Source: Escherichia coli
GTDB lineage: Bacteria > Pseudomonadota > Gammaproteobacteria > Enterobacterales > Enterobacteriaceae
NCBI RefSeq assembly: GCF_003334815.1
Contig: NZ_QOWO01000005.1
DNA: 64,000 bases
Direction: 5' to 3' (one strand)
Position numbers and translations under genes: made by a program. Positions 1 to 44,362 of the stretch are shown one piece after another. The notes under the pieces are model-generated. The model saw nothing but the letters and a program-made list of their open reading frames with translations. It made no database searches and was not told the DNA's origin. Position 1 is the stretch's first letter, and every line of letters starts with the position of its first letter.

Positions 1-1810
1 CTGCGGCGTTGTATTCATACCGCGTTTCACGGCCCTGTGCGTCTTTCACCGAGGTTAACCGGCCACGGTTGTCATAGCGGCGGTAAAGGCTGATGCCTTC
101 CTCGCGGTGGACCGCCGTCATCTGGCCGAAGCGGTCGTATTCATAACGGGTCTGGTAGCCCGAGCAGTCGGTGAACGCCAGCAACTGCCCGTAGCGGCTC
201 CAGGTCATCTGCCGGGTGCTGCCCGTCGCATCCGTTGTCGTCGCCGGTAACTCACTGTGCGCGTCATCGTAGCGGTAGCGTACTGTCTCCCCGCTGCGCG
301 ATGTCTCCGATACCAGCCTGCCCGGTTCATCATATTCCCGGCGGCTCTCCAGCCCGTCCGGGGACACCACCGCCGTCAGCTGGTTCCCGTCGTTATAGTA
401 AAATTTCGTCTCCCGCCCGTCCGGTGTGGTGATGTCCGTGATATCGCCGGACACCACATTCAGACCGTACTCTGTCCTCCGTCCCGCCGCGTCCGTCTGC
501 GCCGTGAGCCTTCCTGCCGCGTCATACCCGCTGCGCGTGACGCTGCCGTCCGCCAGTTCTTTTTTCACCACCCGTTTCAGCCCGGCCCCGCCTTCTGTAT
601 GCAGCACCTCACGCCGGTTCAGGCTGTCGGTGACGGTGATGCGGTCCTGCTCATAAAGATAGCGGTAGCTTAACCCTGCCGGGTTCAGTTGCTCCACCAC
701 CCGCCCCGTATCGTCGTAGCGGTAGCGCATCTCCGGCCTTCCCGCGTAACGGTGCGCCACCATCCGGCCCGGGTGCTGCGCGTCATACGTGAAAGCGCGC
801 ACCTGCGTATTGCTGCGGTCATATACCGCCAGCAGTTCACCGGCTTCCGTATACGTGTACCGCACCAGTGGCGCAGCGGGCAGGCTCTCCGGGTATGCCG
901 GGTCGTGCATCAGCCACACCGCCGAAAGGCGGATACCCCTGTCGGGGCCGTATTCGGTACCGGGCAGTGTGTCGGGGAACGCTGAGGCTGAGAGAGGGCG
1001 GGAACTGTCAGAAGAAGATAGCGAAGAGGTGCGGGCCTCTTCCGCACGCTGCGCCTGCGTGGTCAGCACCAGACGGAACTCCCGCCCGGCACCGTCCGTC
1101 ACGCCGGTGATTTCCCCGGCCAGGTCGCCTGCGGCCTCACGCCGGTACGTCAGCGTCCGCCCGAAACGGTCTGCCAGCCCGGTAAGCACCCGGTACGGCG
1201 GCAGCGGCGCTGGCAGTACGTCCTCAGCACCCGGCACCCGCTCTGACCACCCCAGTATCCACCACGGCCCCTGTGCGCTGTTGGTCGCCAGGTAAAGATG
1301 CGGGCTTAACCGGATATCCGGCGGCAGCGCCCCCCACAGCCGCGCCAGCGTATGGCCGTCCGGCTGTGCTGCCTTACCACCGCGCACCAGCCACATTGAC
1401 TCACTGCGGCTGTACACCGCCTCCCCCGGCAGCAGCGGCTCAAAGTGAATGCTCCGCCCGCCGTTGTCGTTGAGTATCAGTCCGTCATCACGTAGCTGTA
1501 AGCGGATATCAGAAGGCGCTTTCCAGCCGGGGCCGAAAACGCCCACCGGTGCAGGCGTCTTCGTCCGGTAGCTGCTGTAGGTGCGGGAGAGAATGAACGG
1601 CAGCGGGCCGGGCAGCGCAAGGTCCGTCTCGCCGGGCAGCACCTTCGCCCCCAGCAGCGGATTTACCGGGTTGCCCGAAGTCATCCCGCCCGGACACACC
1701 GAGCACGCCACGCCGGTGGGCGCGCCAATTCTTACACCTGCCGAACCCTGGACAATGGGACCGCCATACTGAGTCATATCTCCCTGACGCGCCGCTGGTT
1801 TTCCGCTCAT
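1..1810 (-). CDS. rhsD: Rhs element core protein RhsD, N-terminal ~603 codons (partial; CDS runs off window start)
   Basis: Minus-strand translation from ATG (complement of 1808-1810) reads MSGKPAARQGDMTQYGGPIVQGSAGVRIGAPTGVACSVCPGG... with no stop before position 1; absent from ORF track because it is incomplete. Confidence 0.9.
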   Translation of the reverse strand, partial: MSGKPAARQGDMTQYGGPIVQGSAGVRIGAPTGVACSVCPGGMTSGNPVNPLLGAKVLPGETDLALPGPLPFILSRTYSSYRTKTPAPVGVFGPGWKAPSDIRLQLRDDGLILNDNGGRSIHFEPLLPGEAVYSRSESMWLVRGGKAAQPDGHTLARLWGALPPDIRLSPHLYLATNSAQGPWWILGWSERVPGAEDVLPAPLPPYRVLTGLADRFGRTLTYRREAAGDLAGEITGVTDGAGREFRLVLTTQAQRAEEARTSSLSSSDSSRPLSASAFPDTLPGTEYGPDRGIRLSAVWLMHDPAYPESLPAAPLVRYTYTEAGELLAVYDRSNTQVRAFTYDAQHPGRMVAHRYAGRPEMRYRYDDTGRVVEQLNPAGLSYRYLYEQDRITVTDSLNRREVLHTEGGAGLKRVVKKELADGSVTRSGYDAAGRLTAQTDAAGRRTEYGLNVVSGDITDITTPDGRETKFYYNDGNQLTAVVSPDGLESRREYDEPGRLVSETSRSGETVRYRYDDAHSELPATTTDATGSTRQMTWSRYGQLLAFTDCSGYQTRYEYDRFGQMTAVHREEGISLYRRYDNRGRLTSVKDAQGRETRYEYNAA

Positions 1811-2240
1811 ATAAAGTGCCCTTTTAGTTATTGTTCATATCCCTGTGTTAGCAACAAAAAAAAATAAAATGACACACAAGACCAGCTAATGTATTTATAT
1901 ATTTTTCACATAAACTTATTTGTTCTCAATCAACAACAACTGTTATTACAGGTCACTTTCAATATTTTATTAAACTAACATTTTTAGCACAGATGAATTC
2001 ATCATCAACAAATTCACTATATGGATAATATCCATTCAACGCATATGATTTATGATTTTATTAGTCTGAGTTATTTTTGTAGGGCTATATTTAAAATCAA
2101 TAAACTCCACCGATTCAGATTAATATCAGCAATAGAAAGATAGGAAATCACCAATTCAATAACATCATCAATGAAACATATTGTAGAATTAATTTAAACA
2201 AGGCGTTCCATTCAACCAGAACGCCCCTTATTTACTCTCA

Positions 2241-4655
2241 TCACCCCGCAAACTGCCTGAACAGCGCCTTACCCTTAACCAGTCGCGCACCCAGCCAGCC
2301 GCCGAAAAGCGACAGCAGCAGCGCTCCGCTGCACGGCAGAACAATCCACAATCGCCAGTCTGGCTCCCACGGAAAATCAAACACTTTCGCCTGCAACACT
2401 GCCAGCGCCGTTTCCGCACCAATTGCGGCCACCAGGCCGGAAACAAACCCAAGCATGGCGAACTCACACCACAACGTGGTACGCAGCAGTTTTTTCCCCG
2501 CACCGAGTGTGCGCCACACCACCAGCTCCTGATGACGCTGACGCATTCCCACCTGCACCTGTGCCAGCAACAGCAACATACCGCAGGCGGTGACCAGTAC
2601 CACCATCACTTCCAGCGCCCGACTTACCTGCTCCAGCACCTGACCGACCTGTTTTAAAATCGCGCCAATATCTAACAGGCTAATGGTCGGGAACTGGCGG
2701 TTGAGTTGTGTCAACATGCCGTTGCCATTCTCCCAGCGGAAACTGGTAAGCCAGCTCTGCGGTTGCCCGTCTAATGCCCCTTCAGGGAAAATAAAATAGA
2801 AATTAGGCCGCAGACTTTCCCAGTCCACTTTGCGCAGGCTGGTCACTTTAGCGCGGAACTCCTGGGTATCGCCCATAAAAGTCACGGTATCACCGAGGGC
2901 AACGTTTAAGCGTTTCGCCAGCCCCTCTTCCATCGACACTTCATCGGCTTTTGGCGGCCAGTTACCGGCGACAATCGGATTATGATCGGGCCGCGTATTT
3001 TGCCAGGTAAGATTGAGTTCGCGGTTAAGCGCCTCATCTTCATTACCTTCTGTCGGCTTATCGTTAATCGCCGTCAGCCGCGCCCGCACCACCGGATAAA
3101 ACGATTCCGGGACTATCTGATGTTCCGCGAGGAACGCTTTTAGCGGTGCTACCTGTTCTGTGGCGATGTTAATTAAAAAGTAGTTCGGGCTTTCTGGAGG
3201 TAGCTGCTGCTGCCAGCGGTCGAGCAGATCGCCACGCAACACCAGCAGCAGTGCCAGCAGCATAAAGGAGAGCGAAAATGCCGAAAGCTGACTTAACGTT
3301 GACCACGGCTGACGTAACAGGCGGCTAACCGCCAGGCGCAGAGGCAGCGATTTCAGCGTCATGCGGCGAAGTACATTCAGCAGCATCCAGCCCAGCACAC
3401 CGCACAGCAAAGCCAGTACTACCGCGCCCGCCAGCACCGCCCAAAGCAGCATGCTGCCACCCATTAATCCGGCGAGCAGCAGCACAACCACCACACTGAC
3501 AATCGGCAGATAAAACTTCAGCGGCCAGACGTTCGCTACCACATCATTACGTAATACGCGTAAAGGCTGCGTTGCCAGCAACAAGCGATATGGTCGTAGC
3601 CCCACCAGCAGCGAGATGACCGTCATGGTGCCAAGCGCCCACAGCCACGGCCAGAGGCTGGCTGGCGGTAGTGCAGCAGGCAGAACGGGCTTGAGCAGCA
3701 CCATCAACACGTTTTCGAACAACAGGCCTATGGCCCCACCGGTAACGGCTGAAAGCGTCAGCACCATCAACCACTGACCGACGATTAGCTTACGCAGTTG
3801 CGCTCGCCCTGCCCCCAGCGTTTTGAGGATCGCCACCAGATCGTAGCGACTGCGACAGTAATGATTCATCGCTACCGCCACCGCTGCCACTGCCAGCAGC
3901 AAGGTCAGAAGCGCCGAAAGCAGCAGGAACTGTTGCGAGCGTTCCATCGATCGCCCCAGCGCGCCTTCGTCCTGTTCCAGACCGTACCAGCGTTGTTCGG
4001 GTTTAAGCTGAGGTAACAACCATTTCTCATAGCCGTCGAGCTGGTTCTCGTTGCCGCCGAATTTATAACGCCAGGTGACCCGACTCCCCGGCTGCACGGC
4101 TCCGGTTTTATCGACATCCGCCAGATTCATCATCAGACGCGGAGCCATCTGGAAGGGGTTAAAACCGGAATCCGGTTCCTGAATCACTTCTCCGGCAATC
4201 CGCAAGGTGGCATCGCCCACGTCAATGGTGTCGCCCGTTTTCAGGTTAAGCAGTGCCATCAGGCGTGGGGCCAGCAATACGCTGCCCGCCTGCGGTTTCA
4301 GGCCAGGGGGATTAGTTTGCAGATCGCCATACATCGGGTAGATATCATCCACCGCTTTGACGTTCGCCAGCTGCGGTGTGTCGCCTGCAAAGGTCATTGT
4401 GGCGAAAGTCAGCTGCTTGCCGACTTTCAGGCCGCGCTTTTGCGCTTCCTCCAGCCACGCTTGCGGCACTTCGCGTGAACTGCGCAACGCCCGATCGCCC
4501 GCCATAAACTCACGGCTTTGCTGGCTTAAGCCCTTCTCCATGCGATCGCTGATATTGCCCAGCGCCAGCACGCAGGCCACCGCCAGGCTTAGCGCCAGCC
4601 AGACAATTAATAGCGACGGCGAACGCCATTCGCGCCAGAACCAACGTGCAATCAT
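2241..4655 (-). CDS. ybbP: FtsX-family ABC transporter permease (804 aa)
   Basis: ORF track 804 aa, MIARWFWREW...; multiple TM segments; start overlaps ybbA stop in ATGA. Confidence 0.93.
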   Translation of the reverse strand: MIARWFWREWRSPSLLIVWLALSLAVACVLALGNISDRMEKGLSQQSREFMAGDRALRSSREVPQAWLEEAQKRGLKVGKQLTFATMTFAGDTPQLANVKAVDDIYPMYGDLQTNPPGLKPQAGSVLLAPRLMALLNLKTGDTIDVGDATLRIAGEVIQEPDSGFNPFQMAPRLMMNLADVDKTGAVQPGSRVTWRYKFGGNENQLDGYEKWLLPQLKPEQRWYGLEQDEGALGRSMERSQQFLLLSALLTLLLAVAAVAVAMNHYCRSRYDLVAILKTLGAGRAQLRKLIVGQWLMVLTLSAVTGGAIGLLFENVLMVLLKPVLPAALPPASLWPWLWALGTMTVISLLVGLRPYRLLLATQPLRVLRNDVVANVWPLKFYLPIVSVVVVLLLAGLMGGSMLLWAVLAGAVVLALLCGVLGWMLLNVLRRMTLKSLPLRLAVSRLLRQPWSTLSQLSAFSLSFMLLALLLVLRGDLLDRWQQQLPPESPNYFLINIATEQVAPLKAFLAEHQIVPESFYPVVRARLTAINDKPTEGNEDEALNRELNLTWQNTRPDHNPIVAGNWPPKADEVSMEEGLAKRLNVALGDTVTFMGDTQEFRAKVTSLRKVDWESLRPNFYFIFPEGALDGQPQSWLTSFRWENGNGMLTQLNRQFPTISLLDIGAILKQVGQVLEQVSRALEVMVVLVTACGMLLLLAQVQVGMRQRHQELVVWRTLGAGKKLLRTTLWCEFAMLGFVSGLVAAIGAETALAVLQAKVFDFPWEPDWRLWIVLPCSGALLLSLFGGWLGARLVKGKALFRQFAG

Positions 4656-40664: not shown

Positions 40665-43817
<3,153 letters not shown>

Positions 43818-43836
43818 TACAACGTGTAATCACTAA

Positions 43837-43858
43837 GGCCGCGTAAGCGGCCTTTTTT
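43837..43858 (+). terminator. acrB intrinsic terminator
   Basis: ggccgc-gtaa-gcggcc then tttttt (43853-43858), 20 nt after acrB stop. Confidence 0.85.
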
Positions 43859-44362
43859 ATGCATAACCTACGAACATTAAGGAGTAATTGAACCACCAAC
43901 TCAGGATCTCATACGAAAACCAGTATTAACCACGGATAAAATTCATAAAAAATACTGATTGTTAGTTAATTTATATTAAGTAGCGCTAATAGATTTAATA
44001 ATCCATAATCATTTAGAGGCTATTCTTAATTATTTGCGGTAATTCTTTATTCATTCCTCGGTTATTACGTCATATTCAGAGCAATCCTGGTATTAGTGTC
44101 ACCAATTTCATCTGGCGATAATCCTGAAATGTTATGAATAGTTCGAGCAAACTGCTTTTACCTGCTGCGGGTTAGTGCTAGTATGAAAAAGTGAGTCCTG
44201 TCCCGCTTCCTTCCTAATTGTAATTTTTCGTAATAATGCGATGAAAACCTGCAAAGAGTGGCTTATAGTTAAGCTAACAAACGAGAGGGCAAGTCCAGGT
44301 CAGTAAGTTTTTTCCATCCCGAAAGGTGTCCGTTAGTTCAACCGCTAAGAAGGGGACGCGTT

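Follow-up and report, generated by a model that had tools for sequence, protein, structure and literature searches.

The upstream end of the RhsD element and its AT-rich leader in a K-12-like Escherichia coli chromosome

We analyzed a 64,000-nucleotide stretch of Escherichia coli DNA (contig NZ_QOWO01000005.1 of RefSeq assembly GCF_003334815.1; hereafter the window) whose first 2240 positions contain the 5' part of the Rhs gene rhsD and the DNA that separates it from the neighboring gene ybbP. These positions very probably represent the upstream end of the RhsD element in a K-12-like chromosome, in which an H-NS-bound leader precedes the start of an Rhs effector like those of a type VI secretion system (T6SS). 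Comparison of genomes that carry RhsD with those that lack it shows that the variable DNA begins at about position 2236, approximately 5 bp beyond the stop codon of ybbP, rather than at position 1810, where rhsD starts. An initial annotation of the sequence had set the entry into an Rhs element here. The window does enter such an element, but the boundary between chromosome and island lies next to ybbP, so the 430 bp upstream of rhsD are island DNA rather than neutral intergenic DNA.

Identity and boundary of the RhsD island

A megablast search with the first 2.4 kb against 5,426 complete E. coli genomes returned matches of 99.8–100% identity to sequences that RefSeq labels rhsD and ybbP, and the two genes are annotated side by side in thousands of genomes. 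Over its full length, the window runs collinear with the rhsD–lon segment of the E. coli chromosome and is K-12-like; the strain itself is not K-12. The closest records are those of strains 52F4 and L73, which together with K-12 make up the three nearest genomes, with approximately 1 to 9 mismatches over 14.4–25 kb; only the single mismatch of L73 (in 14.4 kb) was counted, and the other values, including the ~9 nucleotide differences of K-12 in 25 kb, are estimates from bit scores. The chromosomal site is that of the RhsD element of K-12 (rhsD-ybbC-ylbH-ybbD), and the neighboring genes match across the entire 64 kb. Among the conserved Rhs loci listed by Jackson et al. (2009; PMC2935791, Table 3), this position between ybbA and ybbB already figures as locus 3, which extends from ybbA/ybbP to ybbB/mnmH. 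As expected of RhsD at this locus, the gene lies directly downstream of ybbA-ybbP, in the same orientation, and is preceded by a unique 430-bp leader.

On the minus strand, an ATG at 1808–1810 opens a reading frame that remains open for 603 codons to the start of the window. Of the 603 encoded residues, 602 are identical to those of K-12 RhsD, the one difference being L212, which is M in K-12. RefSeq annotation of the nearest genomes likewise places the start of rhsD at 1810 and the stop of ybbP at 2241, leaving a spacer of 430 bp (1811–2240). The initial annotation had given exactly these coordinates and had named the gene correctly. Its description of base composition is borne out as well. 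Positions 1–1810 contain 65.0% GC, the highest value of any 1810-bp stretch in the window, and exceed the window mean (52.6%; standard deviation 5.0) as is characteristic of Rhs cores relative to their host. The variable tip, which is typically AT-rich in such elements, lies outside the window. The spacer, at 28.4% GC, is the lowest 430-bp stretch, ~4.8 standard deviations below the mean, and is followed by ybbP at 57.6%. Runs of A or T within the spacer include A9 at 1856, T5 at 1902, 1981, and 2074, and six pure A/T stretches of 9–15 bp.

Of the 5,426 complete genomes, 2,907 (~54%) carry a single copy of the 430-bp leader, with 98–100% identity, and the others lack it. At least 80% of window positions 1–2400 is held in one place by 2,844 genomes, and the carriers of the leader are essentially those with rhsD at this site. 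Because the leader is single-copy and limited to these genomes, it is part of the RhsD island. In genomes without RhsD, similarity to the window ends at 2231–2238, giving way to unrelated sequence 3–10 bp beyond the stop codon of ybbP. The best matches of these genomes to positions 1411–2110 are other Rhs cores, which cover exactly 1411–1810 at 82–99.8% identity. The Rhs core is found in a median of 6 places per genome; since the other cores match only to 1810, the repeated core starts at the ATG. An alignment of four types of content found between ybbP and mnmH finds shared sequence only from TC(T/A)CA-TCA(stop) onward, ~5 bp before the stop triplet.

Two other accounts of the AT-rich 430 bp were weighed. 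One holds that they are ancestral intergenic DNA of the chromosomal backbone and that the Rhs element starts only at the rhsD start codon. The likeness among different Rhs elements does start exactly at the ATG, so the repeated part excludes the spacer. However, backbone DNA would not be confined to the genomes with rhsD at the site while similarity in all others stops within 10 bp of ybbP; comparison of genomes with and without RhsD led us to reject this account, which is exceedingly improbable. The other holds that the spacer is conserved because it harbors an unannotated small gene or small RNA. Several open reading frames of 21–40 codons are present (for example 2021–2143, plus strand), and one alternative content of the site bears a small type I toxin gene. 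Against this, short open reading frames are expected in DNA of 28% GC, the open reading frames and repeats of the spacer are at chance level, and the near-identity of the leader between genomes leaves too little variation for a test of coding constraint. An Rfam scan of 1600–2500 at E ≤ 1 found no RNA family, the RefSeq records listed carry no annotated feature in the leader, and no repeats or structure stand out in the spacer. We regard a hidden gene or RNA as very improbable.

Exact-pattern scans of 100,044 species-representative genomes with a 24-mer and a 22-mer from the leader gave 0 matches and did not trace the leader beyond E. coli, a weak result in that only exact matches count and none was returned for E. 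coli either. Insertions of IS1 recur in the leader: strains EC590 and C1 carry one ~80 bp from the ybbP stop (at about 2160–2200 of the window). In strain AL.H8, an IS1-bounded deletion has removed the whole RhsD island, of which only 2199–2240 is kept, and plasmid pEcFELIX533.1 carries ybbA-ybbP and part of the leader beside copies of IS1.

Regulatory content of the leader

The leader is 100% identical in K-12 (DH1), and published data on K-12 therefore apply to it. Panyukov and Ozoline (2013) listed the ybbP/rhsD spacer (522099, 304 bp; 522099_304) among 78 "promoter islands" of K-12, associated it with genes predicted to be foreign, and reported it to be bound by H-NS in all chromatin immunoprecipitation studies that they compared (PMC3661553). 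Promoter islands are AT-rich and H-NS-bound, show suppressed transcription, and lie near horizontally acquired genes; the leader is itself one of the listed items and is located on the margin of an accessory island. Its assignment to this class follows from identity with the listed spacer, and its occupancy by H-NS and RNA polymerase is taken from the K-12 literature. Shimada et al. (2014) reported a constitutive promoter of the RpoD holoenzyme for ybbP>rhsD, flagged HNS, with the hexamers TTAATA-17-TGTAAT (PMC3946193). This pattern has a single exact match in the window, at 1973–1945 on the minus strand, and none in 100 shuffles. A simple promoter scan suggested another, weak candidate at 1929–1901. 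On these published data, the leader of the window strain would bind both RNA polymerase and H-NS and would direct transcription of rhsD from the sigma-70 promoter at 1973–1945. Because the same leader is an H-NS-bound promoter island in K-12, rhsD is most likely kept largely silent by H-NS.

The remaining candidate signals in the leader were read from the sequence (Table 1). A GC-rich hairpin at 2227–2200 is followed by a poor T-run (GTTTAAATTA) and is likely to be the terminator of ybbP. The hairpin consists of island DNA, and the other types of content at the site bring different hairpins or REP elements to this position.

Architecture of RhsD and its likeness to T6SS effectors

Three parts of RhsD are encoded in the window: 47 N-terminal residues that include one PAAR-like repeat, then the plug domain DUF6531, and finally the initial third of the shell of YD repeats. 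Residues 1–603 match positions 1–607 of the 1261 in the NCBIfam model RHS_core (NF041261) with 1298 bits (E = 0), a score that falls below the curated cut-off of 2000 bits only because the window edge cuts the gene; the complete RhsD of L73 scores 2769 bits over model positions 1–1258. Tandem YD/RHS repeats are evident from residue 320 onward in seven Pfam RHS_repeat matches (E ≤ 0.0016) and in a match to TIGR01643 YD_repeat (E = 3.4e-36). A search of solved structures returned 11 matches, all of them Rhs-type proteins and most of them named type VI secretion effectors. The best match is Pseudomonas aeruginosa Tse5 (8cp6, E = 5.9e-64), followed by P. protegens RhsA (7q97, E = 1.6e-41); others include Acinetobacter Tse15, Salmonella bongori Rhs, Vibrio RhsP, and Photorhabdus Tre23. 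Alignment of the N-terminal region to Tse5 breaks off in one place only, within which falls a Ser-rich stretch of low complexity (TSSLSSSDSSRPLSASAF; residues 249–289, window 943–1066) that probably forms a variable surface loop.

When the first 61 residues of RhsD were searched alone, residues 2–29 (window 1727–1807) aligned with no part of canonical PAAR proteins other than their last repeat (4jiv_D residues 67–93, E = 0.026; 9rce_c residues 71–98, E = 0.025). The Pfam PAAR_motif (PF05488) gave E = 0.14, with residues 3–20 aligned to positions 52–69 of the 70-position model. A complete PAAR domain was therefore rejected, as only one of its three repeats is represented. Judged by these alignments, the N-terminus of RhsD is PAAR-like in the sense of Tse5 and is no PAAR domain proper. 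Cleavage of Tse5 falls at K47|P48 and yields an N-terminal fragment of 47 residues, described as a PAAR-like domain that secretion requires; DUF6531 forms the N-terminal plug in its structure (PMC10684867). The shell chain of Tse5 (8cp6_B) starts at the residue aligned to P48 of RhsD, such that N47|P48-VNPLLG of RhsD corresponds, by alignment only, to K47|P48-VNPMLG of Tse5. A lone PAAR repeat cannot by itself build the three-fold PAAR cone.

The two proteins share further features and differ in others. Like RhsD, Tse5 (PA2684, an Rhs effector of the H1-T6SS of P. aeruginosa) combines a PAAR-like fragment of ~47 residues that lacks transmembrane helices with P-V-N-P-x-L-G at position 48, followed by a plug (DUF6531) and a YD shell. 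Position 47, immediately before the cut in Tse5, differs (N47 in RhsD, K47 in Tse5), as does the toxin tip, which is a pore-former in Tse5 and a DUF4329 domain in the RhsD of the nearest genomes. The vgrG gene of Tse5 is its neighbor, whereas the 12-kb flanks of the rhsD locus in the nearest genomes contain none. RhsD also shares its YD-repeat shell and plug domains with P. protegens RhsA (7q97) and Photorhabdus Tre23/Rhs1 (7pq5). In such canonical PAAR-Rhs effectors, however, a complete three-repeat PAAR, often with prePAAR or transmembrane segments, forms an N-terminal fragment of 25–45 kDa; RhsD has one repeat in 47 residues and none of the prePAAR or transmembrane segments of RhsA and Rhs1.

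The remainder of the element can be viewed in the nearest genomes. In L73, 52F4, and K-12, rhsD is intact (4281 bp, 1426 amino acids); after it come ybbC, an orphan fragment of an Rhs tip, fragments of the ybbD family, and the ylbG pseudogene. The complete RhsD of L73 contains an RHS-associated core domain (TIGR03696, residues 1181–1258) with the motif PLQQIDPMGL, which fits the pattern PxxxxDPxGL and is a DPxGL-type motif of the kind present in canonical PAAR-Rhs effectors. Its tip is a DUF4329 domain (E = 1.3e-37), and YbbC of L73 belongs to the immunity proteins of the NTF2 fold (Imm-NTF2-2, E = 6.8e-26).

From its homology to Rhs effectors of solved structure, among them Tse5 and RhsA, full-length RhsD would form a closed YD-repeat β-shell around its C-terminal toxin, with one cleavage at N47|P48 and another behind the DPxGL motif. 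The PAAR-like N-terminus would load the protein onto the VgrG spike of a T6SS, and the delivered toxin would kill competitors in a contact-dependent manner. By the same homology, the DUF4329 toxin would be neutralized by the NTF2-fold YbbC, which would protect sibling cells. The GC-rich core is one of several near-identical copies per genome and can therefore also be rearranged in a RecA-dependent manner, a property to which Rhs owes its name.

Several points weigh against regarding this segment as the start of a T6SS-type effector behind an H-NS-bound leader. The C-terminal two thirds of rhsD lie outside the window, as do the tip and the immunity gene, in agreement with the initial annotation. 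RhsD has no full PAAR domain. A scan for sigma-70 hexamers found 2 sites in comparison with 2.1 expected in shuffles, that is, no excess of promoters beyond what AT-richness yields, and the H-NS consensus TCGATAAATT, allowing up to 2 mismatches, has 2 matches (both with two mismatches) in the 430 bp and is not clearly enriched. Statements about regulation rest on the published K-12 data and those about delivery on homology, and both are to be read as such. Likeness to solved T6SS effectors supports the view that RhsD works like them, not that it belongs among the effectors delivered by a T6SS. Strains of the K-12 lineage are known to lack a T6SS, so RhsD may never be delivered here; neither the window nor the 12-kb flanks in the nearest genomes contain vgrG or T6SS genes. 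If the source genome has no T6SS either, RhsD may lie there as silent ammunition, or its role may be a different one.

These considerations lead to a reading in which RhsD of K-12-like lineages is no secreted weapon at all: it would be either an unused relic or an intracellular component, for instance one that modulates phage infection or that forms a toxin-antitoxin-like module driven by internal promoters. Besides the lack of a T6SS in K-12, binding of full-length rhsD by H-NS fits this reading. So does the behavior of Salmonella Rhs tips, which are expressed from internal promoters and act as a type II toxin-antitoxin module (PMC7043789). Eight phage selections of a K-12 transposon library each brought mild enrichment of rhsD::Tn, a signal that the authors dismissed as background (PMC7414163). 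On the other side, the gene is kept intact at 1426 amino acids in K-12, L73, and 52F4, RhsD has every module of a delivered Rhs effector, the window itself gives no pointer to an intracellular role, and the transposon signal is unvalidated. We consider a non-secreted RhsD unlikely. Disruption of rhsD in the source genome beyond the start of the window was weighed in the same way. IS1 is active in the RhsD island of relatives, and the window itself offers nothing in favor of a disruption. Its 603 codons are intact, and a disrupted rhsD core is found in none of the three nearest genomes, all of which carry the 4281-bp gene. Such a disruption is highly unlikely.

Table 1 Features at the upstream end of the RhsD element (window coordinates)
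Feature	Position	Strand	Basis
5' part of rhsD, codons 1–603 of about 1426; GC-rich Rhs core	1..1810	-	Open frame, K-12 identity, NF041261, RefSeq
First YD/RHS repeats of the β-shell, codons 320–603	2..853	-	Pfam RHS_repeat, TIGR01643, shell alignments
DUF6531, N-terminal plug of the Rhs shell, codons 46–123	1442..1675	-	Pfam PF20148, E = 2.3e-18, model 1–74 of 74
N-terminal piece with single PAAR-like repeat (MSGKPAARQGD...GVRIG), codons 1–47	1670..1810	-	Structure alignments, Pfam; ends before P48-V-N-P-L-L-G
AT-rich leader of rhsD (430 bp, 28.4% GC), island-borne, single-copy	1811..2240	-	GC, genome comparison, K-12 literature
Shine-Dalgarno-like AAGGG (putative), 8 nt before ATG	1819..1823	-	Read from the sequence
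Published sigma-70 promoter of rhsD	1945..1973	-	-35 at 1973–1968, -10 at 1950–1945; hexamers of Shimada et al.
GC-rich hairpin, 13 nt after ybbP stop	2200..2227	-	Terminator-like match, 11 pairs; fold -17.6 kcal/mol, z = -2.1
Junction of conserved chromosome (ybbP side) and variable island	2236..2240	.	Similarity end points, four-type alignment
ybbP, ABC-transporter permease, conserved flank	2241..4655	-	804-amino-acid open reading frame; RefSeq annotation

Two further observations were made. The second lowest-GC stretch of the window lies in the acrB-tomB intergenic spacer (43807–44292, ~34–35% GC). The annotated ybbP of 52F4 lacks 12 bp at its 3' end (2403 versus 2415 bp) despite near-identical sequence, which probably reflects annotation or a point difference.

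Alternative contents of the ybbP-mnmH site

The genes ybbP and mnmH are convergent, and in the 5,426 complete genomes at least four alternative contents lie between their stop codons. The RhsD island is present in about 2,900 genomes and measures 7.3 kb in K-12 and 8.1 kb, including IS1, in L73. In 1,315 genomes, the site is occupied by a spacer of 712 bp that contains REP elements and a gene assigned by PGAP to the type I toxins of DinQ type. In 570 genomes, for example those of ST131, the site holds a gene for a 667-amino-acid effector of the Hcp family together with three or four DUF2931 genes. The fourth content is a bare spacer of 140 bp, and a further variant is the IS1-mediated deletion that leaves only 2199–2240 of the window. 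On the mnmH side, the alleles diverge within ~15 bp past the stop codon, and the Hcp allele diverges four codons before it. The break points fall at or within a few bases of both stop codons. No integrase or tRNA gene is found at the ybbP-mnmH site. The simplest reading of these alignments is that the cassettes would be swapped by homologous recombination in the conserved flanking genes. A literature search for DUF2931 with Hcp returned nothing about this locus.

It is tempting to speculate that K-12-like strains without a T6SS keep the intact, H-NS-bound rhsD-ybbC module for a task independent of secretion, as an intracellular toxin-immunity switch with an effect on stress survival or phage infection. 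In a wider sense, the spacer between ybbP and mnmH could be a dedicated exchange site in which unrelated toxin cassettes (Rhs, the Hcp-fused effector, the DinQ-like type I toxin) or nothing at all replace each other by recombination in the flanks. We think this combined proposal somewhat less probable than a non-secreted RhsD as such.

The gene, its locus, the GC-rich core, and the AT-rich, H-NS-bound leader with its promoter are all already published or annotated in RefSeq, and the present analysis has little weight as a discovery; a literature search for rhsD with ybbC returned a genome announcement only. Why strains without type VI secretion keep intact Rhs genes is a long-standing question. 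The value of the analysis lies in the accuracy that it establishes for the initial annotation and in the boundary of the island, which is now fixed at the ybbP stop codon. A site with multiple toxin-cassette alleles is unsurprising for Rhs loci; with at least four contents, three of them toxin cassettes, the ybbP-mnmH site provides a tidy example of cassette replacement between convergent core genes.

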